NCBI RefSeq assembly: GCF_963921235.1
Contig: NC_086097.1
Location: 56,546,001-56,610,000, forward strand
Direction: 5' to 3'
Length of the DNA stretch: 64,000 bases
Source: Mobula hypostoma
Taxonomy: Eukaryota
The first letter of the stretch is position 1. Every line of letters begins with the position of its first letter. The notes beneath the pieces were generated by a model, which did no database searches, had not been told where the DNA came from, and was given only the letters and a program-made list of their open reading frames with translations. A program made the position numbers and the translations under genes. Shown in pieces: positions 6,606 through 61,000 of the stretch.

Positions 6606-7171
6606 GTGGATGGAATTGAAATAATTCTGAACACTGAAGTTATCAGCGGATGCGGGGATTAGGCAGGAATGTGCTTAAAACATGGGGCCTACCATCATCA
6701 TGCTGAACAGCTGAGCAGCTTGTGAAGCTGAATGGCTCAGGCTTGCCTTTTGTTCTTCTTAACAGAAACAGTTCAATACATAAAGACGAAAACATATGAA
6801 ACAAAATAATTAGGGGAGATATATAGTTAAACTGCATACCACAAAGGATATGCAGTCATAATGTTGGTTTAACAAACATGGAGCTCGAGACACTGTGATA
6901 CAAACGGCCGCAGCTAGAGATGGTTTATAACATTAACCCTGGCAAATGGTTTATGTTCATTGTTCTCCAGCTTAATATCCCAGGTTTTATCTGGTCTTCA
7001 GAAAATGATGTTCTGAAAGCAAGCTAGACAAATTCCAAACCATTTACACAATAAGTTTATTTAGTTTTTTTTGTGATACCTTCAAATCGCTAAACATTAA
7101 CAGTGCACAGTATTGCTCTACTATGGGACAGAGTGATAGAGTATAGTTTCAGACCCATAATCCCAATCAAC

Positions 7172-15799: not shown

Positions 15800-16774
15800 T
15801 GACAATCTACATCATAGAATGCTAAAAGAAACTAGTCAGGAAAATTGTCGGTCATCTTTTAATTCTCGAGTTCTTTAAACTCTTGACCAGATCCTACAGA
15901 CAGAAAGGTGGTAAATGTAATGCTGTAGCACTATTTTAAAAAAGGAAAGAATGAAAAATAATTCACACATTACTGAGCCTTACATCATCAGTGGAGAGAA
16001 TGCTCGTGCCTATTGTGAAAGAAAGGAAAGCATTAGGCAAAGTCATTCAGCATGGATTTACAAAAGAGAAATCATGCCTGACAACTCTACTCTCTTTTGA
16101 GATTGTAACCGCAGACATTCCACCTCTCCCGGAAGTTCCCAGAGTCTCCCGCATATTGATAGCGGCTCCCTAACGCCCGCAAATTATATACAATATCCCG
16201 GAAATCAATTTTTTTGAGAGCAAGCAAGAGAGAGGGGGGGGAGAGAGAGAGAGAGAGACAGAGAGAGCAAGTGACAGACGTAGCAAGAGAGTGACAGAGA
16301 GAGCATCCTGATTGGTCTCTCTTTGTGCTAAGTAGACACCTATCAGTTTTCTCTGTGGGGGGGCTTTACAATCGACATCTCTCTCTTTCATTGTCCATCA
16401 GTTCAGTTTAGTGTCCTGCAGCGCCATGGCAGAATGTTCCAAAAAAAGAAAATATAAAATGTACTTCACCCCAGACTACACTAAAGTGTACCCCCGCCTA
16501 ACAGGGGTCAAAAATAATGACAGTGTTGCTCGCTGCACTGTTTTGCAACAGTGACTTTTCTATTGCCCATGGTGGGTTACGACTGTAAAAGACATGCTGA
16601 GGTGAGTTTAACAGGTGTCATTTGTTCATTAGCATAGCTAACGTTATTTAAACTAGCTGGCCAGCTGCTAAGGAGCTACTCTATTGATGTCCTACGTGAT
16701 GAGGCCAAACTCCCTGAAAAGCTATTAGATTAGCATTTAACTATTGAGACTGCCAACAAAATACTCAACAAGGA

Positions 16775-16818
<44 letters not shown>

Positions 16819-17770
16819 AGTTTCAATATGTAATCAAATAAATTGCTGTGTTCTTTCATAATCAAATGTCCTGAATACATACACCCTCGGAGGTCAACCC
16901 AGGGGAGGAGGGAGGGTGGTGGTGCTACCTCCCTGAAATGAGTTTTTGCAGGGTGAGATGTCTGTAACTGGTAGAAAATAAGAGAAACCCAGTGAAGGTA
17001 ATGTACTTGGACTTTCACAAGGCTTTACATAGGGTCCGTAACAAAAGGATTGGGTGTAAAATTAAATCACATGAGACGAGGGGGTAATTACACTGGCATA
17101 AACTGTTACAGGGATCAGGCTCAGCTAATCTTAATATATACCCACAAGTTGGGTAAGTGAATGTAACATCTCCAAATCTGCAAAGGACGCAAGGCCCAGG
17201 GGAGTAATGCAAGCTGTGAGGAGGATGCAAAGAGGCTCCAAAGTGTTTTGGATATGTTGAGTGAGTGGACAAATGCATGGCAGATGCAGTTTAAATGATA
17301 AGTGTGAGTATTCACTTGGTTCTGAAAACAAAAAGATACATTATTATATGAAATGGTGATAGATTAGGAAAAGGGAGTTGCAACAAGACTTGGTTGTCCT
17401 TGAACATCATTTGCTGAAAGCAGATTTTCAAGGGCAGCAGAAGATTAGGAAGGGGAATGGTATGTTGACCTTCACTGCAAGAGGATATGAGTACAGCAGT
17501 AACAATATCTTGCTGCAGCTGTACAGGCCCGTAGTGACGACAGGAGAAATGCTTTTATCCGCAGAGTGCCAAACCTGTAGAATTTTCTACCACAGGGAGA
17601 CCGAGACATCAAATACATTCAAAAAGAGTGTAAAAGGGATAAGGGTTGAAAGCAGGAACTGGATGCTGAAGTGGATAATCAGCCTACAATACATTAAATG
17701 GTGGAGTAGGTCCAAAAGACCAAATAGCCTACTCCGACTCCTGTTTTCCAAGTTTTTTGTTTTTCTGACA
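15800..17770 (+). mobile_element. Old CR1 RT remnant split by a hAT insertion
   Basis: QHGFTKEKSCLT lies before the insert and the YLDF-like segment resumes at about 16970. The CR1 3' end is at about 17760. Confidence 0.75.
16112..16964 (+). mobile_element. Non-autonomous hAT-like element with a BED-finger exon remnant
   Basis: TIRs CAGACATTCCACC and GGTGAGATGTCTG. Flanks TGTAACCG / TGTAACTG. The internal MAECSKKRKYKMYF...ARCTV/CNSDFSIAHGG..DCKRH is followed by a GTGAG donor. Confidence 0.75.
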
Positions 17771-23728: not shown

Positions 23729-25463
23729 CAAATAAGTGGGAGGAGAAGATGGCGACGTGACGCAGCTTGCAGCGGCCACTCTGGTGGTGATGTCTGTTAT
23801 TTGTCAAGTAGGGTGCCGTGCACAATCCTGATTTGATGGAGACGGACGTGAGAGCATGGAGGAGCATCTGGAGAAACTTCTGAAATGCCTGCTTCATTGC
23901 TGCTGCTACTCTGTGGTCCAGAATCTCCGGAGGAGAAGGCTCCAAGTCCTCGGCTTTGCTTGTTGCTCGGCGGCCGGGGCGGGGTCAAAACGCTCGGCAG
24001 ATGATGGTGCTCGGAAAGGCTGTGTCGGAGGGGCTGGTTGAAGGCTCAAAGTTTTTGGACAGACTCAGAGTCCGCTGTGGTCGGGTGCTTCCAATGGTGC
24101 TGCATCGGCAAGTTGGCAGCGCTTGGAGGTTCATGGCAGGGAGAGTTCCTCCCTTCTGCCGCCTGCGTGAGATAGAAACACAGAAACATAGAAAATAGGT
24201 GCAGGAGTAGGCCATTCGGCCCTTTGAGCCTGCACCGCCATTCAGTATGATCATGGCTGATCATCCAACTCAGAACCCTGTACCTGCCTTCTCTCCATAC
24301 CCCCAATCCCTTTAGCCACAAGGACCATATCTAACTCCCTCTTAAATATAGCCAATGAACTGGCCTCAACTGTTTCCTGTGGCAGAGAATTCCACAGAAT
24401 CACCATTCTCTGTGTGAAGAAGTTTTTCCTAATCTCGGTCCTAAAAGGCTTCCCCTTTATCCTCAAACTGTGACCCCTCGTTCTGGACTTCCCCAACATT
24501 GGGAACAATCTTCCTGCATCTAGTCTGTCCAATCCCTTTAGGATTCTATACGTTTCAATCAGATCCCCCCTCAATCTTCTAAACTCCAACGAGTATAAGC
24601 CTAGTTCATCCAGTCTTTCATCATATGAAAGTCCTGCCATCCCAGGAATCAATCTGGTGAACCTTCTTTGTACTCGCTCTATGGCAAGGATGTCTTTCCT
24701 CAGATTAGGGGACCAAAACTGCACACAATACTCCAGGTGTGGTCTCACCAAGGCCTTGTACAACTGCAGTAGTACCTCCCTGCTCCTGTACTCGAATCCT
24801 CTTGCTATAAATGGCAGCATACCATTCGCCTTTTTCACCGCCTGCTGTACCTGCATGCCCACTTTCAATGACTGGTGTATAATGACACCCAGGTCTCGTT
24901 GCACCTCCCCTTTTCCTAATCGGCCACCATTCAGATAATAATCTGTCTTCCTGTTCTTGCCACCAAAATGGATAACTTCACATTTATCCACATTAAGTTG
25001 CATCTGCCATGAATTTGCCCACTCACCTAACCTATCCAAGTCACCCTGCATCCTCTTAACATCCTCCTCACAGCTAACACTGCCACCCAGCTTCGTGTCA
25101 TCCGCAAACTTGGAGATGCTGCATTTAATTCCCTCATCCAAGTCATTAATATATATTGTAAACAACTGGGGTCCCAGCACTGAGCCTTGCGGTACCCCAC
25201 TAGTCACTGCCTGCCATTCTGAGTCTAACGGGACTTTGAGACTTTTTTTTTACCGTGCCCATGGTCTGCTCTTTATCAAATTATGGTATTGCTTTGCACT
25301 GTTGTAACTATATGTTATAATTAAGTGGCTTTGTCAGTTTTAGTCTTGGTTTGTCCTGTATTTTCTTGTGATATCATTCTGGAGGAACGTTGTATTATTT
25401 TTTAATGCTTGCATTTCTAAATGACAATAAACGAGGACTGAGTGCCCTCATAATCTAATCTAA
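23729..25463 (+). mobile_element. Non-autonomous CpG-rich retroelement (about 0.65 kb) split by a CR1 insertion
   Basis: Begins GGAGGAGAAGATGGCG and ends aataaa...(taatc)n. The two halves are colinear with an uninterrupted relative at about 45553-46167 on the minus strand. Confidence 0.7.
24173..25222 (-). mobile_element. 5'-truncated young CR1 (RT C-terminus plus 3' UTR)
   Basis: 318-aa ORF with GVPQGSVLGP and FADD, nearly identical to the 50.7-54.7 kb copy. Tail tagaaacacagaaacatagaa. Confidence 0.93.
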
Positions 25464-25718
25464 CTTCAGAAATCAGATACTTCATTTTTATTGATACTTT
25501 GTACAGTGATTGTCTTGAAGCATATTCAATTATTTTAGATATATTAAGACCATAAGACATAGGAGCAGAATTAGGCTGTTTGTCCCATCCAGTCTGCTAC
25601 GCCATTTAATCGTGGCTGAATCATTTTCCTTCTCAACCCTAATCTCCTGCCTTCTCTTTGTATCCCTTCATGCCCTGAGCAATCAAGAATCTATCAACCT
25701 CTCCCTTAAATATCCTTC

Positions 25719-27921
25719 AACTTAAAGGAGGGTAACTTTGAAGGTATGAGACATGAATTAGTTAAGATAGACTGGCAAATGATACTTATAGGGTTGACGG
25801 TGGATATGCAATGGCAAGCATTTAAAGATCGCATGGATGAACTACAACAATTGTTCATCCCAGTATGGCAAAAGAATAAACCAGGGAAGGTAGTGCACCC
25901 ATGACTGACAAGGGAAATTAGGGATAGTATCAATTCCAAAGAAGAAACATACAAATTACCCAGAAAAAGCGGCTCACCTGAGGACTGGGAGAAATTCAGA
26001 GTCCAGCAGGGGAGAACAAAGGGCTTAATTAGGAAAGGGAAAAAAAGATTATGAGAGAAAGCTAGCAGGGAACATAAAAACTGACTGTAAAAGCTTTTAT
26101 AGATATGTGAAAAGAAAAAGATTGGTTAAGACAAATGTAGGTCCCTTACAGTCAGAAACAGATGAATTAATCATGGGGAACAAGGACATGGCAGACCAAT
26201 TGAATAACTACTTTGATTCTGTCTTCACTAAGGGGGACATAAATAATCTTCCGGAAATAGCAGGGGACCGAGGGTCCAGTGAGATGGAGGAACTGAGGGA
26301 AATACATGTTAGTAGGGAAATGGTGTTAGGTAAATTGAAGGGATTAAAGACAGATAAATCCCCAGGGCCAGATGTTCTGCATCCCAGAGTGCTTAAGGAA
26401 GTAGCCCAAGAAATAGAGGATGCATTAGTGATAATTTCTCAAAACTCTTTAGATTCTGGATTAGTTCCTGATGATTGGAGGGTGGCTAATGTAACCCCGC
26501 TTTTTAAAAAAGGAGGGAGAGAGAAACCGGGGAATTATAGACCGGTTAGCCTGACATCTGTAGTGGGGAAAATGCTAGAGTCAGTTATCAAAGATGTGAT
26601 AACAGCACATTTGGAAAGCAGTGAAATCATCGGACAAAGTCAGCATAGATTTGTGAAAGGAAAATCACGTCTGATGAATCTTATAGAATTTTTTGAGGAT
26701 GTAACTAGTAGAGTGGATAGGGGAGAACCAGTGGATGTGGTATATTTGGATTTTCAAAAGGCTTTTGACAAGGTCCCACGCAGGAGATTAGTATGCAAAC
26801 TTAAAGCACATGGTATTGAGGGTAAGGTATTGATGTGGATAGAGAATTGGTTGGCAGACAGGAAGCAAAGAGTGGGAATAAACGGGACCTTTTCAGAATG
26901 ACAGGCAGTGATTACTGGGGTACCGCAAGGCTCAGTGCTGGGACCCCAGTTGTTCACAATATATATTAATGATTTAGACAAGGGAATTAAATGCATTCTT
27001 TCCAAGCTTGCGGATGACACGAAGCTGGGCGGCAGTGTTAGCTGTGAGGAGGATGCTAAGAGAATGCAGGGTGACTTGGATAGGTTAGGTGAGTGGGCAA
27101 ATTCATGGCAGATGCAATTTAATGCGGATAAATGTGAGGTTATCCACTTTGGTGGCAAGAACAGGAAAATAGATTATTATCTGAAAGGTGTCCAATTAGG
27201 AAAAGGGGAGGTGCAACGAGACCTGGGTGTCATTGTACACCAGTCATTGAAAGTGGGCATGCAGGTACAGCAGGCGGTGAAAAAGGCAAATGATATGTTG
27301 GCATTCATAGCAGAGGAATCGAGTACAGGAGCAGGGAGGTACTACTGCAGTTGTACAAGGCCTTGGTGAGACCTCACCTGGAGTATTGTGTGCAGTTTTG
27401 GTCCCATAATCGGAGGAAAGACATTCTTGCCATAGAGGGAGTACAAAGAAGGTTCACCAGATTGATTCCTGGGATGACAGGACTTTCATATGAAAAAAGA
27501 CTGGATCGATTAGGCTTATACTTGTTGGAATTTAGAAGATTGAGGAGGGATCTTATTGAAACGTATAAAATTCTAAAGGGATTGGACAGGCTAGATGCAG
27601 GAAGATTGTTCCCGATGTTGGGGAAGTCCAGAACAAGGGGTCACAGTTTAAGGATACAGGCGAAGCCCTTTAGGACCCAGATGAGGAAAAACTTCTTCAC
27701 ACAGAAACTGGTGAATCTGTGGAATTCTCTGCCACAGGAAACAGTTGAGGCCAGTTCATTGGCTATATTTAAGAGGGAGTTAGATATGGCCCTTGTGACT
27801 ATTAAGGGATCGGGGGTATGGAAAGAAAGCAGTTGGATGATCAGACATGATCATACTGAATGGTGGTACAGGCTCAAAGGGCCAAATGGCCTACTCCTGC
27901 ACCTATTTTCTATGTTTCTAT
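25719..27921 (+). mobile_element. 5'-truncated young CR1 of the same subfamily, inserted into an older minus-strand CR1 3' end (25548-25713 and 27922-28130)
   Basis: ORF fragments are nearly identical to ORF2 of the 50.7 kb copy. Tail ttctatgtttcta. The flanks join up as one CR1 3' region. Confidence 0.92.
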
Positions 27922-31617: not shown

Positions 31618-32590
31618 TCTGCCCTTTTTCAGCCCATTTTTCCAGCAAGCTTTAATAGTCTTTCTTGCTGTCCACCATGCCCCCTCCCAACAATCTTGGT
31701 GCCATCCTCAAATCTGGAGATCCAGTTTTCTACATTATCACCCAGATTGTTGATATAGATGACAAACAAGAACAGATCCAGCACTGATCCCTGCAATACA
31801 CCACTAGTCACAGGCTTCCAGTCGGAGAGGCAACCATCTACTCTCACTCTGTGCTCCTTCTGTGAAGTCAATATCTAATCCAATTTACTATCTTGAATTC
31901 CAAGTGACTGAACCTTCTTGACCAACCTCCCATGTGGGACCTTGTCAAAAGCCTTGTAGACAAATCCACTTCCCTGCCTTCATTAACTTTCCTGGTAACT
32001 TCCTAGAAAACCTCTATGAGATTGGTTAGACCACACAGAAAGTCATATTGATTATCCCTAATCCGTCCCTGTCAATCCAAATATTGTATATCCAATCCAT
32101 TAGAATACCTTCCAATAACTTCCCCACTACTGATGTCAGGCTCACCAGACTACAATCTCCTGACTTATTTTTAGAGTCTTTCTTAAACAGTGGAACAACG
32201 TTAGATATCTTCCAATCCTCCGGCACCTCACCTGTGGCTAAGATGTTTTTAAATATCTCTGCTAGAGCCCCTGCAACTTCTGCACTAGCCTCCTACAGGG
32301 TCTGAGGGAACACCTTGTCATGCCCTGGAGATTTATCCAGCCTAATTTGCCTCATGACAGCAAACACCTCCTCCTCTGTAATTTGTACAGGGTTCATGAC
32401 CTCACTATTGCTTTGCCTCACTTTTATAGACTCTGCGTCCGTCTCCCGAGTAAATATGGATGCAAAGATCCTACATGCATCAATGAACACTTTAATCTTC
32501 CAGAGGACCAATTTTGTCTTTTGCTCTTAATATATCTGTAAGAAGCCCTTGGGTTTCTCTTTCACCTCCTCTGCTAGAGCAAACTCCTGT
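31618..32590 (-). mobile_element. Degenerate CR1 RT fragment
   Basis: PEDWKISNVVPLFKK, SLTSVVGKLLE and VTSGVLQGSVL. Confidence 0.85.
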
Positions 32591-34239: not shown

Positions 34240-37200
34240 CCAATCGAGGAGGTTCGCTAAAGCTACTGGGGAGAGTTTAAACTAGAATTGTTGGGGGGTG
34301 GGAACCCAACTGAAGAGACTGGGGAAGAGGAGGTTGGCTCACAAATAGAGAAAGCTCGTAGACAGTACGAGAGGGAGGAAAGGCAGGTGATAGCGAAGGG
34401 ACGCGCTCAGACCGAAGGTTTGAGATGTGTCTATTTTAACACAAGGAGTATTGTGAACAAAGCTTAGAGTGTGGATCAGTACTTGGAGATATGATGTGGT
34501 GGCCATTACAGAGATTTGGATGGCTCAGGGACAGGAATGTTACTTCAAGTGCCCGGTTTTAGATGTTTCAGAAAGGACAGGGAAGGAGGCAAAAGAGGTG
34601 GGGGCGTGGCACTGTCGGTCACAGATAGTGTCACGGCTGCAGAAAAGGTGGACGTCATGGAGGGATTGTCTACAGAGTCTCTGTGGGTGCAGTTAGGAAA
34701 AAGAAGGGGTCAATAACTTTACTGGGTGTTTTCTACAGGCCGCCCAATAGTAACAGGGATATCGAGAAGCAGATAAGGAAACAGATCCTGGAAAGGTGTA
34801 ATAATAACAGAGTTGTCATGATGGGAGATTTTAATTTCCCAAATATCCATTGGCATCTCCCTAGAGCCAGGGGTTTAGATGGGGTGGAGTTTGTTAGGTG
34901 TGTTCAGGAAGGTTTCTTTACACAATATGTAGATAAGCCCACAAGAGGAGAGGCTGTACTTGATATGGTATTGGGAAATGAACCTGGTCAGGTGTCAGAT
35001 CTATCAGTGGGAGAGCATTTTGGAGATAGTGATCATAATTCTATCTCCTTTACAATAGCATTGGAGAGAGATAGGAACAGACAAGTTAGAAAAGTGTTTA
35101 ATTGGAGTAAGGGGAATTATGAGGCTATCAGACAGGAAATTAGAGGCTTAAATTGGAAATAGATGTTCTCAGGGAAAAGTACGGAAGAAATGTGGCAAAT
35201 ATTCAGGGGATATTTGTGTGGAGTTCTGCATAGGTACGTTCCAATGAGACAGGGAAGTTATGGTAGGGTACAGGAACCGTGGTGTACAAGGCTGTAAGAA
35301 ATCTAGTCAAGAAGAAAAGAAAAGCTTACAAAAGGTTCAGAGAGCTAGGTAATGTTAGAGATCTAGAAGATTATAAGGCTAATAGGAAGGAGCTTAAGAA
35401 GGAAATTAGGAGAGCCAGAAGGGGCCATGAGAAGGCCTTGGTGGGCAGGATTAAGCAAAACCCCAAGGCATTCCACAAGTATGTGACGAGCAAGAGGATA
35501 AGATGTGAAAGAATAGGACCTATCAAGTTGACAGTGGGAAAGTATGTATGGAACCGGAGGAAATAGCAGAGGTACTTAATGAATACTTTACTTCAGTATT
35601 CACTATGGAAAAGGATCTTGGTGATTGTCGTGATGCCTTGCAACAGACTGAAAAGCTTGAGCATGTAGATATTAAGAAAGGGGATGTGCTGGAGGTTTTG
35701 GAAAGCATCAAGTTGAATAAGTCGCCGGGACCGGATGAGGTGTACCCCAGGCTACTGTGGGAGGCGAGGGAGGAGATTGCTGAGCCTCTGGCGAAGATCT
35801 TTGCATCATCAATGGGGAAGGGAGAGGTTCTGGAGGATTGGAGGGCTGTGGATGTTGTTCATTTATTCGAGAGAGGGAGTAGAGGTAGCCCAGGAAATTA
35901 TAGACCAGTGAATCTTACCTCAGTGGTTGGTATGTTGATGGAGAAGATCCTGAGAGGCAGGATTTATGAACATTTAGTGAGGTATAATATGATTAGGAGT
36001 AGCCAGCATGGCTTTGTCAAGGGCAGGCGATGCCTTACGAGCCTGATTGAATTTTTTGAGGATGTGACTAAACACATTGATTAAGGAAGAGCAGTAGATG
36101 TAGTGTATATGGATTTCAGCAAGGCATTTGACAAGGTACCCCATGCAACGCTTATTGAGAAAGTAGGGAGACATGGGATCCAAAGGGACATTGCTTTGTG
36201 GATCCAGAACTGACTTGCCCACAGAAGGTAAAGAGTGGTTGTAGACGGGTCATATTCTGCATGGAGGTCGGTCACCAGTGGAATGCCTCAGGGATCTGTT
36301 CTGGGACCCTTACTCTTCGTGATTTTTATAAATGACCTGGATGAGGAAGTGGAGGGATGGGTTAGTAAGTTTGCTGATGACACAAAGGTTGGAAGTGTTG
36401 TGGATAATGTGCAGGGCTGTCAGAAGTTACAGCGGGACATTGACAGGATGCAAAACTGGGCTGAGAAGTGGCAGATGGAGTTCAACACAGATAAATGTGG
36501 TAGTGGTTCATTTTGGTAGGTCAAATATAATGGCAGAATATAGTATTAACGGTAAGACTCTTGGCAGTGTGGTGGATCAGAGGGATCTTGGGGTCTGAGT
36601 CCATAGGATACTCAAAGGAGCTGCGCAGGTTGACTCTGTGGTTAAGAAGGCGTACGGTGTATTGGCCTTCATCAATTGTGGAATTGAATTTAGGAGCCAA
36701 GAGGTAATGTTGCAGCTATATAGGACCCTGGTCAGACCACACTTGGGAGTACTGTGCTCAGTTCTGGTCGCCTCACTACAGGAAGGATGTGGAAGCCATA
36801 GAAAGAGTGCAAAGGAGATTTACAAGGATGTTGCCTGGATTGGGGAGCATGCCTTATGAGAATAGGTTGAGTGAATTCGGTCTTTTATCCTTGGAGCAAC
36901 GAGGATGAGAGGTGACCTGATAGAGGTGTATAAGATGATGAGAGGCATTGATCGTGTGGATAGTCAGAGGCTTTTTCCCAGGGCTGAAATAGTTGCCACA
37001 AGAGAACACAGATTTAAGGTGCTGGGGAGCAGGTACAGAGGAGATGTCAGGGGTATGTTTTTTACTCAGAGAACGGTGAGTGCGTGGATTGGGCAGCCGG
37101 CAACGGTGGTGGGGGTGAATACGATAGGGTCTTTTAAGAGACTTTTAAATAGGTACATGGAGTTTAGTAAAATAGAGGGTTATATGTAAGCCTAGTAATT

Positions 37201-41919: not shown

Positions 41920-43555
41920 ATATCAAGAAATGGCTGAGAGCATTGGAGACAGCAAAAGCTATGGGGAAAGATAACGTCACAGCTGTAGTATTGGAGACCT
42001 GCACTACAGAACTAGCAATCCAATATAGTTACAACACTGACATATACCAAATAATGTGGAGAAGTAGTCTTTCCCCAAAAGAACAGTGCAAATCCAGTCT
42101 GGCAATTACCACACAGTCTTTCTTCTCTGCATTAATAGAAGCCGTCTGTGATATTGCTGTCAAGCAACACTGTCTTGCTGATAATCTACTCACCAATGCC
42201 CAGTATGGGTTTTACTGGGACCACTGCAGACTTCAGACTCTGTCACAGCTTTGTTCCAAAGAGATGAATTCCAGAGGTACAGCAGGAGTGAGTGCCCTTG
42301 ATGGCATTAGACTGAGGGTGCCCTGAAGGAGCCCTAGTCAGTTTGAAAGCAACAGACTGCAAAGGTTAGAGCTGCCCCTCACAAAAGGAAACACAACTGT
42401 TACTGGTGGCTCTCCGGGACGTCCCTGCAGGTGTTGCTCATGGTAAAGTCCCAGCTGTTTTATCGGTGACAGTTCTTCCATTATAACATCAGAAGTGGGA
42501 ATGTTCACTCATTATACAAAGTTTAATTTCATTCTCAACTCCTCACGTATAAGCAGCCTGTACACGGGTGCAAAAAGACCTGGACAACATGGGCAGAAAG
42601 TAGCAAGAAACATGATGCCATGTACCATCTGCTAAGTATATTGTAGTCACAAACCTTACACCAGTGGGCTCTCCCAAACCCACAACTCCTACCACTACAT
42701 AGGAGAGGAGCAGCAGGGTCATTACACTGCCATCTATAGGAGATCCTCCAAGCTGTACGCCATCCTGATTGGTCCCTCATGGTCACTTAGTCTAATTCCT
42801 GGGACTCACTGCCCAATAGATCTGTGGGAGAAACATTACCAGAACAAGCTCAGAGTTCCAAAGAGTGAGCCACCATCACCATTCCAAGCTCAAGTAGGGA
42901 TGGGTAATCAGTGCTAAATTAATCCCATTGACCTGTCTCTAGCCTATAGCTCTCCACACCCCTCTCAGCCATGTACCTATCTAAGCTTCTCTTAAATGTT
43001 GGAATTGAACCCACTTCCACTGGAGTTTGTTCCACGCTTGAACCATCCTCTCAGTGAAGAATGTCCCCCTCAGGTTCCCCTTATATAATTTACCTTTCAC
43101 CCTTAACCTATGATCTCTACATCTGATCTCACCTAACCTCAATGGAAAAGGCCTGTCTACATTCACCCTAACTATACCTATTATATCCCCATACGATCTG
43201 TGACATTATGTTCGAGTAATTATGGATTTATATTCCCAGGTCCCTTTGTTCTACCACACACCACAATGCCCTGCCATTCACTGTGTAAGTCCTTACTCCT
43301 GGTGTAGTTTGTTCTTCCAAACTACATCACCTTACACTTGCCTGCATTAAATTACATCTTCCATTTTTGAGCCCATTTTTCTAACTGGTCCAGAACATGT
43401 TGCAAGGTTTGATAGCACTCCTCGCTTTTCACTACGTCCCCACATCCATAAATTTGCTGCTCCAGTTTACCGCGTTATCATCCAAATCATTTATATAGAT
43501 GATAAGCAACAACAGACTCAGCACCAATCCCTGCAACACACCACTAATCACAGGA
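41920..43555. mobile_element. Ancient CR1/L2-group LINE remnant (plus strand, about 41920-42910) next to a CR1 fragment (minus strand, about 42940-43555)
   Basis: TAKAMGKDNVTAVVLETCTTELA and LLTNAQYGF are RT-like. HRLRVKGKLYKGNLRGTFFTER is on the minus strand. Confidence 0.65.
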
Positions 43556-49100: not shown

Positions 49101-50976
49101 TGCTGTTCATCTCAACCTTAAAAGCCTGTTCTGACAATTTGACCTCTAGCTCTGGAGTCCTCACCCGGGGCAACATTGTCCCTGCACCCATTTTGCTGAG
49201 CTCTGTAAGAATTTTGTTTCTTTCAGTGAGCCCTCCTCTCTTTATTTTTTAAATTTTATTTAGAGATACAGCTGAGTAACAGGCTGTTCCTGCCCAAAAA
49301 GCCCGCGCCACCCGAGTACGTCCAAGTGACCTATGTCTTTGGGATGTGGGAGGAAATCCATGTGGTCATGGAGAGAACGTGCAAACTCCTTACAGACAGC
49401 AGTGGGAAATGAACCCAGGTCTCTACCACTGTAAAGTGTTATGCCAGCTGCTGTGATAACCTTGTCTTATGGTCTTATAACTCATCTACTCCATTTCTCC
49501 TCAAATGGAAGGCCACCATCACTGGGTCAAGTCTAATGAACCTTCACTGCTCGCCCTCCACAACAAGTGCAGTTTCTTAGGTAAGTGGACAAATCTGTGC
49601 ATAATTCTCCAGATGGAGTTTCACTAAGGCTCTGCATACATGCAGCAAGACATCTTTCCTCAAGTACACCTATCCTCTGAAATATATTGAACTTACAATA
49701 TCAGAAATGCAGTATTTTTTTAAAACTCACTTAAATAGCACTTATACATTGTGCTACACAATAAAATTTCTAGGCTAACGTGTTTTTTATACGCCTCATT
49801 ATATTGTGCCAATAGTATGGACAATGTAACAGTCTTTCTTTTCTGACTATAGCAGAAGCCCAACTGTGCAGCCCTTAGCTATTTAAGAGATAGCTGTCTA
49901 TTATGTTGTGTAGGCAGCCAATATTTTCCTTCCCTCTACCAGTCAGGAGTGTATTTTAATGTTCCACTCTATAGATTCAGTGAGGCTCACTAACACAACC
50001 TCACACCTTTGAATCATGCAGATAACTAGATGCTTCAAAGCCATTTTGTCAAAGATCTTATAAAAAAAAACTTCTTAAACTGCATGATGAAAGTATACAT
50101 TAGACAAAAATTTCTCTAAGGCAAGGGAAATAAAAATATGATTCTGCTAGCAATTCCTTTTAATTAAAGCCATAAATAATTTAAGGAACAATTGTTGAAA
50201 TAAAATTGATAGTTTACAATGGCTGTCATGAGATCCAGTCCGTGAGGAAATGCTTTTCAGGGGCCTGAAGCACAGAAATAATTATTTTGCTTGCCAGGTC
50301 ACTGTGCAGTTGTGAAGTTCACCAAATGTTACAATCACTGGTCTTTCTAGAAATGTAGAAGGTACAATATCATTAGACCTGTATGAAAAATTGTGTTAAT
50401 TGTCAGGTTTGAGAAGACCTGTGTGAGGTTTGTCTAATGAGAACCAATGAATATTTATGCCCCATGATTAGATCAGTTTCAGGCCATGAATATTATAATA
50501 CAGAGCATACTGATACAATTAAATTAAATAATACTTTATTTTAATAAACTTTGATGAATTGGTGTGGAAAAGAGTTCACAATAAAAGACACATATTCTGA
50601 CTAGGTTTAAATGCTGTTGAATTAAATCTTGTTGAATCTGTATTATCACAGCCAATAATTAATTTATATTTAGTTCAAAATAATATAGAAACATAGAAAC
50701 ATAGAAAATAGGTGCAGGAGTAGGCCATTCGGCCCTTCGAGCCTGCACCGCCATTTATTATGATCATGGCTGATCCTCCAACTCAGAACCCCGCCCCAGC
50801 CTTCCCTCCATACCCCCTGACCCCTGTAGCCACAAGGGCCATATCTAACTTCCTTTTAAACATAGCTAATGAACTGGCCTCAACAGTTTGCTGTGGCAGA
50901 GAATTCCACAGATTCACCACTCTCTGTGTGAAGAAGTTTTTCCTAATCTCGGTCCTAAAAGGCTTCCCCTCTATCC

Positions 50977-53793
50977 TCAAACTGTGACCCCTCGTTCTGG
51001 ACCTCCCCAACATCGGGAACACTCTAGCCTGTCCAATCCCTTTAGGATCTTATACGTTTCAATCAGATCCCCCCTCAATCTTCTAAATTCCAACGAGTAC
51101 AAGCCCAGTTCATCCAGTCTTTCTTCATATGAAAGACCTGCCATCCCAGGAATCAATCTGGTGAACCTTCTTTGTACTCCCTCTATGGCAAAGATGTCTT
51201 TCCTCAGATTAGGGGACCAAAACTGCACACAATACTCCAGGTGTGGTCTCACCAAGGCCTTGTACAACTGCAGTAGTACCTCCCTGCTCCTGTACTCGAA
51301 TCCTCTCGCTATAAATGCCAGCATACCGTTCGCCTTTTTCACCGCCTGCTGTACCTGCATGCCCACTTTCAATGACTGGTGTATAATGACACCCAGGTCT
51401 CGTTGCACCTCCCCTTTTCCTAATCGGCCACCATTCAGATAATAATCTGTTTTCCTATTTTTGCCACCAAAGTGGATAACTTCACATTTATCCACATTAA
51501 ATTGCATCTGCCATGAGTTTGCCCACTCACCCAACCTATCCAAGTCACCCTGCATCCTCTTAGCATCCTCCTCACTGCTAACACTGCCACCCAGCTTCGT
51601 GTCATCCGCAAACTTGGAGATGCTGCATTTAATTCCCTCATCCAAGTCATTAATATATATTGTAAACAACTGGGGTCCCAGCACTGAGCCTTGCGGTACC
51701 CCACTAGTCACCGCCTGCCATTCTGAAAAGGTCCCGTTTATTCCCACTCTTTGCTTCCTGTCTGCTAACCAATTCTCCACCCACACCAATACCTTACCCC
51801 CAATACCGTGTGCTTTAAGTTTGCACACTAATCTCCTGTGTGGGACCTTGTCAAAAGCCTTTTGAAAATCCAAATATACCACATCCACTGGTTCTCCCCT
51901 ATCCACTCTACTAGTTACATCCTCAAAAAATTCTATGAGATTCGTCAGACATGATTTTCCTTTCACAAATCCATGCTGACTTTGTCCAATCATTTCAGCG
52001 CTTTCCAAATGTGCTGTTATCACATCCTTGATAACTGACTCCAGCAGTTTCCCCACCACCGACGTTAGGCTAACCGGCCTATAATTCCCCGGTTTCTCTC
52101 TCCCTCCTTTTTTAAAAAGTGGGGTTACATTAGCCACCCTCCAATCCTCAGGAACTAGTCCAGAATCTAACGAGTTTTGAAAAATTATCACTAATGCATC
52201 CACTATTTCTTGGGCTACTTCCTTAAGCACTCTGGGATGCAGACCATCTGGCCCTGGGGATTTATCTGCCTTCAATCCCTTCAATTTACCTAACACCACT
52301 TCCCTACTAACATGTATTTCGCTCAGTTCCTCCATCTCACTGGACCCTCTGTCCCTTACTATTTCTGGAAGATTATTTATGTCCTCCTTAGTGAAGACAG
52401 AACCAAAGTAATTATTCAATTGGTCTGCCATGTCCTTGCTCCCCATAATCAATTCACCTGTTTCTGTTTGCAGGGGACCTACATTTGTCTTTATCAGTCT
52501 TTTCCTTTTTACATATCTATAAAAGCTTTTACAGTCCGTTTTTATGTTCTCTGCCAGTTTTCTCTCATAATCTTTTTTCCCCTTCCTAATTAAGCCCTTT
52601 GTCCTCCTCTGCTGAACTCTGAATTTCTCCCAGTCCTCAGGTGAGCCACTTTCTCTGGCTAATTTGTATGCTACTTCTTTGGAATTGATACTATCCCTAA
52701 TTTCTCTTGTCAGCCACGGGTGCACTACCTTCCTTGATTTATTCTTTTGCCAAACTGGGATGAACAATTGTTGTAGTTCATCCATGCAACCTTTAAATGC
52801 CTGCCATTGCATATCCACCGTCAATCCTTTAAGTGTCATTTGCCAGTCTATCTTAGCTAATTCACGACTCATACCTTCAAAGTTACCCCTCTTTAAGTTC
52901 AGAACCTTTGTTTCTGAATTAACTACGTCACTCTCCATGTTAATGAAGAATTCCACCATATTATGGTCACTCTTACCCAAGGGGCCTCTCACGACAAGAT
53001 CGCTAATTAACCCTTCCTCATTGCTCAAAACCCAGTCCAGAATAGCCTGCTCTCTAGTCGGTTCCTCGACATGTTGGTTCAAAAAACCATCCCGCATACA
53101 TTCCAAGAAATCCTCTTCCTCAGCACCTTTACCAATTTGGTTCACCCAGTCTACATGTAGATTGAAGTCACCCATTATAACTGCTGTTCCTTTATTGCAC
53201 ACATTTCTAATTTCCTGTTTAATACCATCTCCGACCTCACTACTACTGTTAGGTGGCCTGTACACAACTCCCACCAGCGTCTTCTGCCCCTTAGTGTTAC
53301 GCAGCTCTACCCATATCGATTCCACATCTTCCCGGCTTATGTCCTTCCTTTCTATTGCGTTAATCTCTTTTTTAACCAGCAACGCCACCCCACCTCCCCT
53401 TCCTTCATGTCTATCCCTCCTGAATATTGAATATCCCTGAACGTTGAGCTCCCATCCCTGGTCACCCTGGAGCCATGTCTCTGTGATCCCAACTATATCA
53501 TAATCATTAATAACAATCTGCACTTTCAATTCATCCACCTTATTACGAATGCTCCTTGCATTGACACATAAAGCCTTCAGGCGCTCTTTTACAACTCTCT
53601 TAGCCCTTTTTAATGCTTGCCCTGGATTTGTCGGCCTGCCACTTTTACTTTTCCCCTTTGTACTTTTTGCTTCTACGCTCACTTTACACCCCTCTGTCTC
53701 TCTGCACTGGTTCCCATCCCTCTGTTGTGAACTAACCTCCTCACACCTAGCCTCTTTAATTTGATTCCCACCCCCCAACCATTCTAGTTTAAA
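50977..53793 (-). CDS. CR1 ORF2p: APE endonuclease plus reverse transcriptase, with a frameshifted C-terminus
   Basis: APE motifs NARSIRNK, GITETWL, YRPP, MGDFN and SDHN. RT motifs YRPVSLTS, LDFQKAFDKV, GVPQGSVLGP and FADD. A net 10-nt deletion near 51021 relative to sibling copies shifts the last ~70 codons. Confidence 0.92.
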   Translation of the reverse strand, partial: FKLEWLGGGNQIKEARCEEVSSQQRDGNQCRETEGCKVSVEAKSTKGKSKSGRPTNPGQALKRAKRVVKERLKALCVNARSIRNKVDELKVQIVINDYDIVGITETWLQGDQGWELNVQGYSIFRRDRHEGRGGGVALLVKKEINAIERKDISREDVESIWVELRNTKGQKTLVGVVYRPPNSSSEVGDGIKQEIRNVCNKGTAVIMGDFNLHVDWVNQIGKGAEEEDFLECMRDGFLNQHVEEPTREQAILDWVLSNEEGLISDLVVRGPLGKSDHNMVEFFINMESDVVNSETKVLNLKRGNFEGMSRELAKIDWQMTLKGLTVDMQWQAFKGCMDELQQLFIPVWQKNKSRKVVHPWLTREIRDSINSKEVAYKLARESGSPEDWEKFRVQQRRTKGLIRKGKKDYERKLAENIKTDCKSFYRYVKRKRLIKTNVGPLQTETGELIMGSKDMADQLNNYFGSVFTKEDINNLPEIVRDRGSSEMEELSEIHVSREVVLGKLKGLKADKSPGPDGLHPRVLKEVAQEIVDALVIIFQNSLDSGLVPEDWRVANVTPLFKKGGREKPGNYRPVSLTSVVGKLLESVIKDVITAHLESAEMIGQSQHGFVKGKSCLTNLIEFFEDVTSRVDRGEPVDVVYLDFQKAFDKVPHRRLVCKLKAHGIGGKVLVWVENWLADRKQRVGINGTFSEWQAVTSGVPQGSVLGPQLFTIYINDLDEGIKCSISKFADDTKLGGSVSSEEDAKRMQGDLDRLGEWANSWQMQFNVDKCEVIHFGGKNRKTDYYLNGGRLGKGEVQRDLGVIIHQSLKVGMQVQQAVKKANGMLAFIARGFEYRSREVLLQLYKALVRPHLEYCVQFWSPNLRKDIFAIEGVQRRFTRLIPGMAGLSYEERLDELGLYSLEFRRLRGDLIETYKILKGLDRLECSRCWGGPERGVTV

Positions 53794-54620
53794 GTCACCT
53801 CAGTAGCCCCCGCTAATCTCCCTGCCAGGATATTGGTCCCCCTAGGATTTAAGTGTAACCCGTCCTTTTTGTACAGGTCACACCTGCGCCAAAAGAGGTC
53901 CCAATGATCCAAAAACTTGAATCCCTGCCCCCTGCTCCAATCCCTCAGCCACGCATTTATCCTCCACCTCATCGCATTCCTACTCTCACTGTCGCGTGGC
54001 ACAGGCAGTAATCCCGAGATTACTACCTTTGCGGTCCTTTTTCTCAACTCCCTTCCTAGCTCCCTATATTCTTCTTTCAGGACCTCATCCCTTTTCCTAC
54101 CTATGTCATTGGTACCTATATGTACCAGGACCTCTGGCTCCTCACCCTCCCACTTCAGGATATCTTGGACACGATCAGAAATATCCCGGACCCTGGCACC
54201 AGGGAGGCAAACTACCATCCGAGTCTCTGTACTGCGTCCACAGAATCGCCTATCTGACCCCCTTACTATCGAGTCCCCTATCACAACTGCCCTCCTCTTC
54301 CTTGCCCTACCCTTCTGAGCTACAGGGCCAGACTCTGTGCCGGAGGCAGGGCCACTGTCGCTTCCCCCGGGTAAGCTGTCCCCTCCAACAGTACTCAAAC
54401 AGGAGTACCTGTTGTTAAGGGGCACAGCCGCCGGGGTACTCCCCATCACCTGCCTTTTCCCCTTCCCCCTCCTAACCGTGACCCACTTGTCTGCCTCCCG
54501 TGGCCCCGGCGTGACCACCTGCCTTCCACTCCTCTCTATCACCTCCTCGCTCTCCCTGACCAGACGAAGGTCATCGAGCTGCAGCTCCAGTTCCGTAACG
54601 CGGTCCCTTAGGAGCTGCAT
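53784..54620 (-). CDS. CR1 ORF1p: coiled coil plus SGNH/GDSL esterase
   Basis: Coiled coil LLRDRVTELELQLDDL, and esterase blocks VIGDSIVRG, HIGTNDI and DGLHLN. The frame continues upstream of the listed Met as SPSLPDVYICAKCIE. Confidence 0.9.
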   Translation of the reverse strand: MQLLRDRVTELELQLDDLRLVRESEEVIERSGRQVVTPGPREADKWVTVRRGKGKRQVMGSTPAAVPLNNRYSCLSTVGGDSLPGGSDSGPASGTESGPVAQKGRARKRRAVVIGDSIVRGSDRRFCGRSTETRMVVCLPGARVRDISDRVQDILKWEGEEPEVLVHIGTNDIGRKRDEVLKEEYRELGRELRKRTAKVVISGLLPVPRDSESRNAMRWRINAWLRDWSRGQGFKFLDHWDLFWRRCDLYKKDGLHLNPRGTNILAGRLAGATEVTLN

Positions 54621-55324
54621 CTCGATGCACTTGGCGCAGATGTAGACGTCCGGGAGGCTTGGAGATATATCACACAGAACAATGCATATGTACGTATGTG
54701 TGATTAAATGCTACAGTACTATATAATTATTTTATACAAAAAATTATATTTCATATTATTACAAAATAATAGAAATACATTATCATTTAAGAAATGAGTT
54801 GTATAGAAAATTAAATCATCTCTTTTGGGGCTTGTAATTTTCTGTCTTGTACATTTCCATCATTTGCACTGTTCTCTAATTCTCACATATCCTAGAATAT
54901 ATATAGAATTTTCACTGAGCAAAGGTCAGGAATGCTTTGACCATTTACTTGGGATGTTTTTTAATTCACATTAGGTACCAATAGCAAGCTTTGAACAATA
55001 CATCAATAAATGAAGATGTCAGAATCTACCCTGAGAGTCAAATAGCTTTCCCATTCTTGAAGTTGAGGTAAAACTCCTGCACTAACTGCTGAAAATATTA
55101 TATCAAAACAGTATTATTTGTTTGTTTCTTGACCATTAGGTACCAGCTTTTGAAAGTTACCAGTGAACCTTTTTGTTTTAATTAGCTTTCACATCTATAA
55201 TAAACCCCTAGTGAAAAGTGTTATCAGTAATCTAATATAGTGGAATTCACAAACATGGGAAACTAGAAAAAGATTATCAATACATTAGACAAACCTCAGA
55301 CTGATTCGCTATAAAAGCTAAAAC

Positions 55325-58044: not shown

Positions 58045-61000
58045 TTCACCAAGCTGCTGCTCCTCAGAGAATGTGATAAGAAATTGGAGCTGCAGCTCGA
58101 AGATCTTCAGCCCATAGGGAACTGAGGAGATGATAGGTAAGGGTGGTAGTCAGCCCTAGGCTGCAGTAACCAGGAAAATTGGTGACTGTCAAGAGAGGTG
58201 GGTAGAGGTAGGTCTCTCCAAAAGGAGCTGTAAAGCGCTCCTTCCCTCGGCTAACCTGCAGGTCAGTCTTGGGAAAGGTGTAGCACCTGATTAGCCCCCT
58301 GATCAGGGTCACAAGAAGCCATGGAAGCAGGTGGTGGATGGTCGTATGAGCAGCTGGTGAACATCACAAGTCCCAGTTACGCAAACACTGACGCCAGACT
58401 GTCAATCTCTGAACAGTATTGAAATTGGTAATGGTTGGGGTCACCCATCTTGTAAAGACACAGTCCAGAAAAAAGGCAATGGCAAACCACTTCTGGAGAA
58501 AATTTTGCCAAGAATAATCATGGTCATGGAAGGAACATGATCACCCATGTCATACAACATGGCACATAATGAACAAATAATGAACATCAGGAGAGGGGAG
58601 GGAAATGGGCAGCCAGTGCAGAGTAGCCTGGTAGCTGTTCCCCTCAATAATAATCACCCTGTGTTGAGGGGAACAACCTACATGGGAGGGGCTGCACCAA
58701 CTGGATCTCTGGCACTGTGACTCAGAGAGGAAGGGAGGAGAAGGGGACTACAGTAGTGATAGGGGATTTCATAGAGGAGCAGACATGAGATTTTCTGGAT
58801 GTAATAGAGACACCCAGATGATATGTTGCCTCCCAGGTGCCAGGGTCAGGGACACTGGGATCAGATCCACAACATTCTAAAAGGGGGAGGGAGAGCATGC
58901 AGAATACTTGTTACATATTGGCACCAATGACAGAGGTAGGAAAAGCGAGGAGGTCCTGAAGAGAGAATTTAGGGAGCTAGGTAGAAAGCTGAAAAGCAGG
59001 ACCTCCAGGGTAGTAATCTCCAGATTGCTGCTTATCCCATACACCAAAGAGAGAAGAGAAATAGGATGATATGGCAGATGAATTAATGTCTGAGAAACTG
59101 TTGCTGGGGGCAGGGTTTCAGACTCCCACATCATTGAGATCTCTTCTTGGGAAGTTATGACCTATACGAAAGGGACGGGTTACATCTGAACCCGAAGGGG
59201 ACCAGTATCTTTGCGACAGGTTTAAACTAATTTGGCAGGGAGATGGGAGCCGGACTGGTAGGACTGGGGTTAGGTCTGGTGATTTACATGCAGAGGTAGG
59301 GTATAGTGAGACTGTCAGTAAGGACAGACAGATGATAGGGCAAAATTGCAGTCAGTGAGATGAGTTGCAGTGTAAATGGGGGACAAAATCAAAAAGGGTG
59401 TTGGACACAGGATTGAAGGTTTTATGTTTGAATGCATGCAGTATACAGAATAAAGTAGATGATCTGGTGGAGCAGTTAGAGATTGACATTGATGGCATCA
59501 CTGAGTCGTGGCTGAAAGAAGGTTGCAGTTCAGAGCTTAACATCCAAGGATGCACATTGCATCAAGAGGACAGGCAGGTAGGCAGAGGGGGTGGTATGGC
59601 ACTGTTGGTAAAAGGTGTAATCAAATCTTTAGAAAGAGGTGACGGGATCAAAAGAGAAGAATCCTTGTGGGTAGAGTTAAGAAACTGCAATGGTAAAAAG
59701 ACCCTAATGGGAGTTATATACATTCCACTGAACATTAGCCAGGATGTGGGATACAAATTGTGATGAGAGATAGAAAAGGCTTATCAAAAGGGCAATGTTA
59801 CAACAGTCATGGGGGACCTCAGTATGCAGATAGATTGGAAAATCAGGTTGTTACTGGACCCCAAGAGAGAGAATTTGTAGAATGCCTGCAAGATGCCTTT
59901 TTAGAGCAGCTTGTGTTTGAGCCCACTAGGGGATCGGCTATTCTGGATTGGGTGTTGCGCAATGAACCAGATTTGATTAGGGAGCTTAAGGTAAGGGAAC
60001 CCTTCAGAGGCAGTGATCATAATACAACAGCATTCACCTTGCAATTTGAGAGGGAGAAGCTAAAGTCAGATTGTACCAGTATTTACAAAAACATTTACAA
60101 GGGACTAGAGGAGCTGAGTTATAAGGAAAGATTGAACAGGTCAGGACTTTATTTCTTGGAATGTAGGTGACTGAGGGAGATTTCAAAGAGGTATAGAAAA
60201 TTATGAGGGGTATATATAGGATAAATGAAAGCAGGCTTTCCCCATTAAGGTTGGGTGGGACTACAACTAGAGATCATGGTTTAAGGGTGAAAGATAAACA
60301 ATTTAAGGGGAACATGAGGAGAAACTTCTTCACTCAGAGGATTATGAGAGTGTGGAATGAGCTGCCAGCACAAGTGGTACCTGTGAGCGCTATTTCAATG
60401 TTTGAGAGAAGTTTGGATATGTACATGAATGGCAGGGGTATGGAAGGCAATGGTCTGGGTGCAGGTCAATGGGACTAGGGCAGTTTAAATTGTTCAGCAT
60501 GAACTAGATAGGCCAAAGGGCCTGTTTCTGTGCTGTACTTTTCCATCATGACTCAAAGTATTCTAAAAGCTGGATGACACAACTGTGGCTGACAAGGAAA
60601 GTCAAAGCTAATATAAAAGCAAAATAAAGGACGTATAATAGAGCAAAAATTCGTAGGAAGTTAGAATATTGAGAAATTTTTAAAAACCAACAGAAGGCAA
60701 CAGAAACCAGAAGGGTGAGGTGGGGAAGATGGAATATGAATATAAACTAGAGGACACCAGAAGCTATTTCAGATATCTGAAGAGTAAAAGAGTGGTGAGA
60801 GTAGATGTTGGACTGCTGGAAAATGATACTGGAGAGCTAGTAATCAGGGACATGCAAAATGGTGGATGAACTGAATATGGATTTTTCATCAGTCTTCACT
60901 GTGGAAGACACTAGCAATATGCTAGAAGTTCAAGAATGACAGTGGGCAGAAGTGAGTGCAGTTGGTATTTGTAGACAGAAAGTGCTTGGGAAACTGAAAG

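Follow-up and report, generated by a model that had tools for sequence, protein, structure and literature searches.

A CR1-type long interspersed element (LINE) lies on the minus strand of a 64,000-nucleotide (nt) stretch of Mobula hypostoma DNA (NC_086097.1, positions 56,546,001 to 56,610,000; the window), and the junction between its two open reading frames (ORFs) has the layout of a -1 frameshift site. Based on sequence comparison, it is probable (roughly 75%) that esterase-type CR1 elements make an ORF1-ORF2 fusion protein by programmed -1 ribosomal frameshifting where the two ORFs meet. A preliminary description of this DNA had proposed such a shift, joining the esterase ORF1 to an AUG-less ORF2 that encodes an APE endonuclease and a reverse transcriptase (APE-RT), and all of the comparative tests that were run favoured it. 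Positions given below are those of the window, and cited publications are quoted from the portions of their text that were accessible.

Anatomy of the junction

On the minus strand, positions 53795-53784 read ACT TTA AAC TAG, within the longer sequence ...GAG GTG ACT TTA AAC TAG AAT GGT TGG GGG GTG GGA.... The slippery heptamer T_TTA_AAC (53787..53793, minus strand) stands in the X_XXY_YYZ phase with respect to ORF1, and the ORF1 stop codon TAG (53784..53786, minus strand) abuts it. ORF1 extends from stop to stop over 54710-53784 and overlaps the ORF2 frame by 16 nt. The open frame of ORF2 (50977..53799, minus strand), which covers a linker, the APE endonuclease and the reverse transcriptase (RT), is in -1 relative to ORF1. 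It is closed by a TGA (53800..53802, minus strand) two codons upstream of the heptamer, leaving a shift window of 13 nt. From the junction, the ORF2 frame reads GGT GAC TTT AAA CTA GAA TGG TTG GGG and remains open for 940 codons, to 50977. Its first methionine, in AVIMGDFN, is codon 207 from the heptamer and lies within the Exo_endo_phos match. The ATG at 53782-53780 starts an ORF in the third frame that ends after just 8 codons. The stop is followed by the 7-nt variable spacer AATGGTT (53777..53783, minus strand; 0.1-0.9 bits per position in the lineage set described below) and by the G-run GGGGGG-T-GGG (53767..53776, minus strand), which begins 10 nt past the heptamer and consists of GGGGGG at 53776-53771, a T, and GGG at 53769-53767. 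The in-phase heptamer at the end of ORF1, the -1 frame with its closing TGA, the lack of an early ATG in ORF2 and the G-rich tract just 3' of the junction had all been pointed out in the preliminary description, and the sequence bears them out.

By arithmetic, a heptamer of the form X_XXY_YYZ is expected by chance in about 1-1.5% of cases, with 64 of the 16,384 heptamers fitting and 3-4 in-phase positions in the 16-nt overlap. By itself, TTTAAAC is common, with 20 matches in the window where 14.3 were expected. The composite motif TTTAAACTAR-N7-GGG was found 3 times, against 0.00 expected, and all 3 matches lie at CR1 ORF1/ORF2 junctions. One of the other two is a diverged junction on the plus strand at 59221..59240 (family B), GGT TTA AAC TAA TTTGGCA GGG, with a -1 ORF2 reading FKLIWQGDG; the ORF1 of this copy is about 55% identical to that of family A, to which the copy described above belongs. 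The third is a diverged, 5'-truncated copy on the plus strand at 34276..34295 (family C), AGT TTA AAC TAG AATTGTT GGGGGG TGGG, also with ORF2 in -1 and with an ORF2 identity of 33-50%.

Conservation across CR1 lineages

TTTAAAC followed by a stop and a G-run was common to at least five diverged CR1 families (A-E) in the M. hypostoma genome. The junction was identical in 30 of 30 fetched family A loci, and the exact motif was present in 8 of 10 loci of the young family B. The old family D, with an ORF1 ending in ...RALN, carries GC TTTAAAC TAA ATAGTA GGGGGG TGGG. Its exact in-phase motif was retained in 14 of 30 loci, indels at the junction were seen in seven, and the heptamer had base changes in nine (one change in eight loci, two in L089), namely TTTAAAT, TTTGAAC, TTTAAGC (three times), TTCAAAC, TTCAAAT, ATTAAAC and TTTAAAA. 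This is the pattern expected of dead copies decaying from a TTTAAAC ancestor. The representative of family E is L108. A shark ORF1, used as the query against the genome, returned 100,332 first-look candidates, and the matches of a turtle ORF1 query were to the same young families.

Metagenome contigs were scanned with a profile of 40 ORF1 homologues, which yielded 39 loci with ORF1 identities of 24-52%. Eighteen of these reached the ORF1-frame stop and were informative (ORF1 identity 24-38%), while 21 ran off the fetched DNA first. Twelve of the 18 end in NNT TTA AAC plus a stop, in phase, and one (L037) ends in GTTAAAC TAG. Two broken copies (L031 and L060) have TTTAAAC plus a stop out of phase, and the motif is missing in three (L043, L065 and L069). 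Where a metagenome locus had an APE match, the ORF2 frame was -1 in 9, +1 in 3 and the same as ORF1 in 1; the loci in which it is not -1 are copies damaged otherwise.

Information content was calculated, ungapped and anchored on the heptamer, for 19 lineage representatives. It was 1.7-2.0 bits in the heptamer, 1.3-2.0 in the stop and 1.7-2.0 in GGGGG (+17 to +21), in junctions located partly by the TTTAAACT regular expression, a selection that does not include the G-run. In the 36 nt upstream, in the spacer and beyond +22, it was 0.0-1.1 bits, mostly below 0.8. The first heptamer position is T in 18 of the 19 representatives and G in L037, and positions 2-7 are identical in all. The stop (TAG in 14, TAA in 4, TGA in 1) always abuts the heptamer. 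G occupies +17 to +21 in 18-19 of 19 representatives at a fixed spacing from the heptamer, and the stop-to-GGGGG spacer measures 6-7 nt in the recurring motif of T_TTA_AAC, stop and GGGGG. The Gly codon within the G-run is GGG in 19/19, with a G on both sides. Across CR1 lineages whose ORF1s are 24-60% identical, conservation of the heptamer, the adjoining stop and the G-run extends to the nucleotides. An in-phase heptamer, an AUG-less ORF2 overlapping in -1 (family A) and conservation beyond coding need, all of which belong to the canonical -1 frameshift cassette, were found.

In contigs of four runs (X1, X5, X9 and X13), about 40 places were variable within 53650-53950 and 0 within 53761-53796, the part that covers heptamer, stop, spacer and G-run. 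No weight was given to this invariance because 53683-53720 was equally invariant and contigs only were compared. The contigs of run X13 (organism D) have C for T at 53800 (plus strand), which converts the closing TGA to TGG; the closing stop is therefore not conserved between related hosts, and the heptamer is.

Codon choice and C-termini of ORF1

Within the ORF1 body, TTA accounts for 33 of 241 Leu codons (14%), AAC for 31 of 82 Asn codons (38%), and T for 22% of third positions. If only a Leu-Asn end were constrained, NNT TTA AAC would be expected in about 1.2% per lineage. TTA AAC was used in 19/19 lineage representatives and was preceded by T in 18/19. A comparison across lineages, of the kind suggested in the preliminary description for Dfam/Repbase consensuses, found TTTAAAC conserved beyond amino-acid constraint, and the synonymous variation at the Leu-Asn codons that it had named as grounds for refutation was seen in none of the 19 representatives. 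It can be argued that ORF1p needs a C-terminal Leu-Asn and that the slippery pattern is a by-product of this or of chance, and -LN is indeed strongly conserved in the proteins, where it ends 84 of the 120 ORF1 homologues listed. However, such a constraint does not account for the uniform choice of TTA AAC, nor for a G-run that does not vary next to a spacer that does, and chance is opposed by the three composite motifs in the window. We find this explanation scarcely credible.

A total of 254 ORF1 proteins, including the best 150 of 15,551 hidden Markov model matches (E <= 1e-3), were examined, and 166 of them had a complete C-terminus. LN was the ending in 115, GN in 10 (QGN 9, SGN 1) and KN in 3 (SKN 2, AKN 1). 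A residue without any NNU codon preceded LN in 2 of 115 proteins, against a background of 20%. Only four residues have an XXA codon, among them L (UUA), G (GGA) and K (AAA), and the residues before GN (Q or S) and KN (S or A) permit G_GGA_AAC and A_AAA_AAC. These termini suggest that heptamers were swapped within the X_XXA_AAC form.

ORF1 homologues were named from rays, skates, sharks, a coelacanth, frogs, turtles, squamates, a hummingbird and an alligator. A tree was built from 137 ORF1s after their last three residues had been trimmed off. All vertebrate ORF1s of named source fall into one clade, in which 78 of 82 rows end in -LN and the remaining four appear damaged. In the second clade (55 rows), the ends were LN in 18, GN in 10, KN in 1 and others in 26, including whole subclades. 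Because of this variation, the signal is taken as a feature of canonical vertebrate esterase-CR1 and not of every esterase ORF1. Some distant esterase ORF1s (P0121, P0214, P0170 and two tree subclades) have -FFR/-FFH ends or 10-20 extra C-terminal residues in place of -LN, -GN or -KN. Clades of this type may use another kind of junction, such as a U-rich shift site, readthrough or separate ORFs.

Frame and start codons of ORF2

A stop closes the -1 frame 1-3 codons upstream of the heptamer in families A, B and D as well as L036, L037, L039 and L042, which leaves shift windows of 10-16 nt with hardly anything in them besides the heptamer. The linker that separates the heptamer from the first APE motif (N[AV]RS) measures 39-77 codons. 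Over nine lineages it contains 0 stops in the -1 frame, compared with 31 in frame 0 and 50 in +1, so that this frame is kept open right from the junction. In four lineages the ORF2 frame has no AUG until after N[AV]RS, the first being codon 207 in family A, codon 105 in family E, and codon 59 in L032 and L034. Families A, D and E, L032, L034, L036 and L039 have no ORF2-frame AUG close to the stop, and the stop-start overlap or start codon at the ORF1 stop that marks a junction of the SART1/L1 type was not seen in them. Since the AUG varies in position or is missing depending on the lineage, the start codon is not conserved, whereas the heptamer is.

Observations against frameshifting and other explanations of the junction

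Several observations count against programmed frameshifting. RNAalifold was applied to two lineage groups, predicting a weak hairpin of 8 pairs for the bird-like one and 0 pairs for the other, and six single folds of 114 nt were not significant (z = +0.38, -0.90, +0.46, -1.76, +0.74 and -0.52). The heptamer was part of the expression by which some junctions were located, as described above. The G_GGA_AAC and A_AAA_AAC readings are taken from protein termini alone; DNA of the QGN/KN clades was found neither among the fetched loci nor in viral contigs, nor by a single-protein scan of genome contigs. Not all ORF1s beyond the vertebrate clade have the signature, and 26 of the 55 rows there have other C-termini. 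A natural in-frame fusion of esterase and APE-RT was not found among the longer homologues, which is weak evidence; four longer ORF1 homologue matches considered as such fusions were rejected, as all were gene-model chimeras. An ORF2-frame AUG is located 5 codons past the heptamer in L035 and L041 and 4 codons past it in L053, and others occur at codon 39 (family B), codon 29 (L037) and codon 23 (L042). Human L1 and SART1 translate ORF2 without frameshifting (PMC3708506, PMC2881922).

Reinitiation could serve in the lineages with such an AUG, some of them bird-like with the AUG just after the stop. Termination-coupled reinitiation as a general explanation would have the ribosome restart in the -1 frame by the junction, at an AUG or a non-AUG codon, with the G-run holding or positioning the post-termination ribosome. 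The AUGs of L035, L041 and L053 and the stop that always abuts the junction speak for this, the open -1 linker fits it as well as it fits frameshifting, and there are precedents in SART1 (UAAUG) and human L1 (PMC3708506, PMC3894237, PMC2881922). On the other hand, reinitiation gives no reason for the nucleotide-level conservation of U_UUA_AAC, including the rare TTA and the preceding NNU, and leaves unexplained the alternative C-termini that exactly fit X_XXA_AAC. Families A and E, L032 and L034 also have no AUG before the APE motif. We consider reinitiation an unlikely explanation of the junction.

Of the stimulatory structures envisaged in the preliminary description, the hairpin and the G-quadruplex were not borne out as conserved features. 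RNAalifold and the single folds gave no conserved or significant nested structure, so that the stem-loop or pseudoknot 5-9 nt downstream of a canonical cassette was not found in nested form. A C-rich pyrimidine run able to pair with the G-run within 120 nt was absent from 15 of 19 lineages. The three-layer G-quadruplex motif occurred in 0/19 lineages and the two-layer motif in 7/19, and the quadruplex was rejected as a conserved feature. The sole conserved downstream element is an apparently single-stranded G5-6 at a fixed 10 nt, usually followed after 1-3 nt by GGG(G).

The lack of a predicted classical frameshift-stimulating structure, together with the conservation of the G-run past coding need (GGG in 19/19, flanked by G), would also suit an RNA or DNA signal apart from decoding, for instance ORF1p binding, packaging or G-rich regulation, with ORF2 translated by internal entry or from a subgenomic or spliced RNA. 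Such a signal does not require what is seen at the heptamer, which is always in the sole phase that allows tandem slippage and always abuts the stop, with ORF2 in -1 in intact lineages and a -1 frame free of stops from the heptamer on. In addition, no joint at the junction recurred across the contigs of the four runs, which are contigs not shown to be RNA. We regard a signal of this kind as quite improbable.

Proposed mechanism

Under programmed frameshifting, most ribosomes would stop at the UAG or UAA directly after U_UUA_AAC and release ORF1p. A minority would slip back one base on the heptamer, tRNA-Leu (UUA to UUU) and tRNA-Asn (AAC to AAA) re-pairing in the new frame, and would then decode CUA, pass through the 39-77-codon linker and enter APE-RT. 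The product would be an ORF1p-ORF2p fusion (...TLN-LEWLGGG... in family A), which would be Gag-Pol-like with no protease, and the tryptic junction peptide expected of the family A fusion is ...LAGATEVTLNLEWLGGGNQIK. The junction peptide given in the preliminary description, ..EVTLK/FKLEWLGGG.., needs correction. Because Leu and Asn are both decoded in frame 0 and the next codon is CUA, a tandem slip would give ...EVTLN-LEWLGGG... instead. Through the fusion, each RNA would have one RT within the ORF1p assembly, and the G-run 10 nt downstream, with no predicted hairpin, would stimulate slippage.

That ribosomes slip at the CR1 junction, and at what rate, we infer from sequence. UUUAAAC may slip unaided at a low basal rate. 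A single ORF2p per RNA may be all that a LINE requires (PMC3894237), and low basal slippage could be sufficient for such an element. Stimulators located 12-15 nt 3' of a shift site tend to go with trans-acting factors, according to the review of Atkins (PMC5009743), and by analogy a trans-acting factor on the distant G-run may be the most attractive lead.

A broader proposal is put forward tentatively, and we hold it to be doubtful. Esterase-type CR1, the dominant retrotransposon of birds, reptiles and cartilaginous fish, may have produced its RT as an ORF1p-ORF2p fusion since before the split of the jawed vertebrates. It would do so by means of a -1 frameshift cassette of novel design, made up of X_XXA_AAC (U_UUA_AAC, replaced in some clades by G_GGA_AAC or A_AAA_AAC), an abutting stop and an unstructured G-run exactly 10 nt on that acts as a linear stimulator (through a host G-run-binding protein, ORF1p or a weak quadruplex), and RT would be coupled to the amount of ORF1p.

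Comparison with known systems

U_UUA_AAC is the -1 site between coronavirus ORF1a and ORF1b, and G_UUA_AAC is used in equine arteritis virus. The heptamer and its phase in CR1 are identical to these, the GTTAAAC of L037 being the arterivirus form, and the polymerase is likewise a C-terminal extension of the upstream product. The viral sites have a pseudoknot or hairpin 5-7 nt downstream, whereas in CR1 none is predicted, the stop abuts the heptamer and the G-run starts at 10 nt. At luteovirus and dianthovirus shift sites the 0-frame stop comes right after the heptamer, and protein-stimulated frameshifting, as in porcine reproductive and respiratory syndrome virus (PRRSV; nsp1beta/PCBP) and cardioviruses (2A), depends on elements at least 10 nt downstream. 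CR1 resembles these viruses in the adjoining stop and in a 3' element beyond the classical pseudoknot distance, but has a G-run where PRRSV and cardioviruses have a C-rich motif or a hairpin.

The arrangement is similar to Gag-Pol of retroviruses and other long terminal repeat (LTR) elements in that an abundant structural or RNA-binding protein and a rare RT fusion would come from one mRNA in a ratio set by slippage. It differs in that CR1 has no protease and, in place of a capsid, an upstream esterase with a putative coiled coil. As a LINE lacks a protease, the CR1 fusion would stay uncleaved unless a host protease acts on it.

Among LINEs, -1 frameshifting has been stated for TRE5-A and TRE3-A of Dictyostelium (PMC5911963). 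These are APE-type LINEs for which a -1 shift between ORF1 and ORF2 was proposed, in a different clade and host; the cited passage gives neither a slippery site nor a conservation analysis for them, whereas CR1 has a defined heptamer, stop and G-run conserved across jawed vertebrates. SART1 and human L1 are similar to CR1 in having a bicistronic RNA, an ORF2 that needs ribosomes coming from ORF1 and a stop at the junction. They differ in having no slippery heptamer and a separate ORF2p, while ORF2 of CR1 overlaps in -1 and is often AUG-less.

No description of frameshifting at the CR1 ORF1/ORF2 junction was found in a full-text literature search, the coverage of which did not extend to the older CR1 papers (Haas, Burch, Kajikawa, Kapitonov & Jurka). 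In its accessible portions, the 2016 recoding review (PMC5009743) has only HeT-A, TART and L1 among the non-LTR elements. The term 'frameshift' was absent from the accessible text of the esterase structure paper, the survey of Jockey-superfamily ORF1 (PMC4120745), the amniote CR1 phylogeny, the 2A-peptide paper, the review of non-LTR protein biogenesis and the 2010 review. The available text of the June 2026 survey of the CR1 group (PMC13343379) gave 0 matches for frameshift, overlap, slippery and translation, and literature matches to TTTAAAC, as far as their text was accessible, were cloning primers. What would be new is that a vertebrate LINE, in which it was not expected, has a classical heptamer combined with an abutting stop and an unstructured G-run.

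The element and its family

The copy in the window (50685..54665, minus strand) is inactive and truncated at its 5' end. It belongs to family A, a very young CR1-type LINE, and is 99.7% identical to the full-length copy L001 over 2,566 nt. It begins at 54665, which is 54 nt past the ORF1 ATG of L001. The ORF1 remnant including the stop (53784..54665, minus strand) encodes zinc-finger-like CxxC motifs, a putative coiled coil and an SGNH/GDSL esterase (Pfam Lipase_GDSL_2, E = 2e-16). In the ORF1 alignment (A1), C8, C11, C28 and C31 are nearly invariant and a heptad-like series of Leu is present. ORF2 matches Exo_endo_phos (E = 2.7e-12, residues 93-279) and RVT_1 (E = 5.4e-34), and its C-terminal part (50783..51025, minus strand; stop 50785-50783) is in another frame owing to an indel near 51025. 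The 3' end (50685..50706, minus strand) is a terminal octamer repeat, (TTCTATGT)n, of about 3 units with no poly(A), beyond which lies unrelated AT-rich DNA.

Because it is 5'-truncated within ORF1 and its ORF2 frame is changed near 51025, the window copy is dead. The preliminary description had this LINE making the fusion product; this is supported for the family, but the window copy itself cannot express anything.

The 8-nt tandem 3' repeat is a hallmark of CR1. Assignment of the element to the CR1 clade is supported by its predicted esterase ORF1, APE-RT ORF2 and octamer 3' end. The domain make-up matches the ORF1 type with leucine zipper, zinc finger and esterase in PMC4120745, and poly-A tails are described as unique to Zenon among CR1-group elements (PMC13343379).

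The intact family A ORF1 is 311 aa long (MTVRAVCCSRCRMW...EVTLN) and is present in full in L001, L004, L013 and L014. A genome search with family A gave 1,070 first-look candidates, and 40 of 40 scored matches were about 100% identical over 399-401 nt. Among the 30 fetched loci, the ORF1 frame was open for at least 341 codons in 13, and the ORF2 frame was open to the end of the fetched DNA in 19. Family A is very young and alive, with many near-identical intact copies. The 5' untranslated region (UTR) of full-length copies contains a unit of about 130 nt (CTTTCTGAGAGGCGGGACTGCGCAGGCG...GGCAGATTTAAAAGG), about 400 nt upstream of the ORF1 ATG, in two tandem copies in L001 and L014 and in one copy in L004 and L013. 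These units, varying in number, resemble the monomer promoters of mouse L1.

On its two strands the window also contains at least six other CR1 ORF2 fragments, which differ in age and have 29-95% amino-acid identity to the family A ORF2 (24503-27648, 31686-32466, 1699-2422, 5943-6625, 15451-17536 and 43195-43441). Two ORF2 3' parts, at 24503-25222 (minus strand) and 25716-27648 (plus strand), point away from each other.

Annotation and implications

Some public protein records contain CR1 ORF1 sequence. P0038, a predicted stingray protein reading ...ASREG-FKL-NLQGAG...LNARSVRNKADEL, has ORF1 joined to the -1 ORF2 at the heptamer; either a gene model or a copy with a 1-nt deletion mimics the proposed trans-frame product. 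The gene models P0028, P0066, P0067, P0123 and P0124 contain CR1 ORF1 esterase sequence and carry names such as 40S ribosomal protein S24 isoform X2, transmembrane protein 204 isoforms, hydroxyacid oxidase 2 isoform X1 and V-set immunoglobulin protein. They are probably exons derived from transposable elements or annotation chimeras. P0023, a 294-aa CR1 ORF1 homologue (60% identical) on a contig of 4,159 nt, is filed as 'SGNH/GDSL hydrolase family protein [Pseudomonas aeruginosa]'. The bacterial assembly was most likely contaminated with vertebrate DNA; a genome-contig scan with P0023 gave no match. For annotation, CR1 ORF2 would be modelled as a -1 extension of ORF1, a junction that gene models of the P0038 type cross by accident.

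How LINEs translate their second gene is a long-standing question, described as 'not clear' in reviews (PMC3708506, PMC3894237, PMC2881922), and the only worked cases, L1 and SART1, both use reinitiation. If the frameshift is real, a very widespread case of -1 frameshifting would be added in vertebrates, possibly with a new, structure-free stimulator. The largest LINE group of non-mammalian vertebrates would then use a Gag-Pol-like strategy, and its active enzyme would be an ORF1-ORF2 fusion, which would bear on cis-preference, on the assembly of the ribonucleoprotein and on the small number of CR1 retrogenes.

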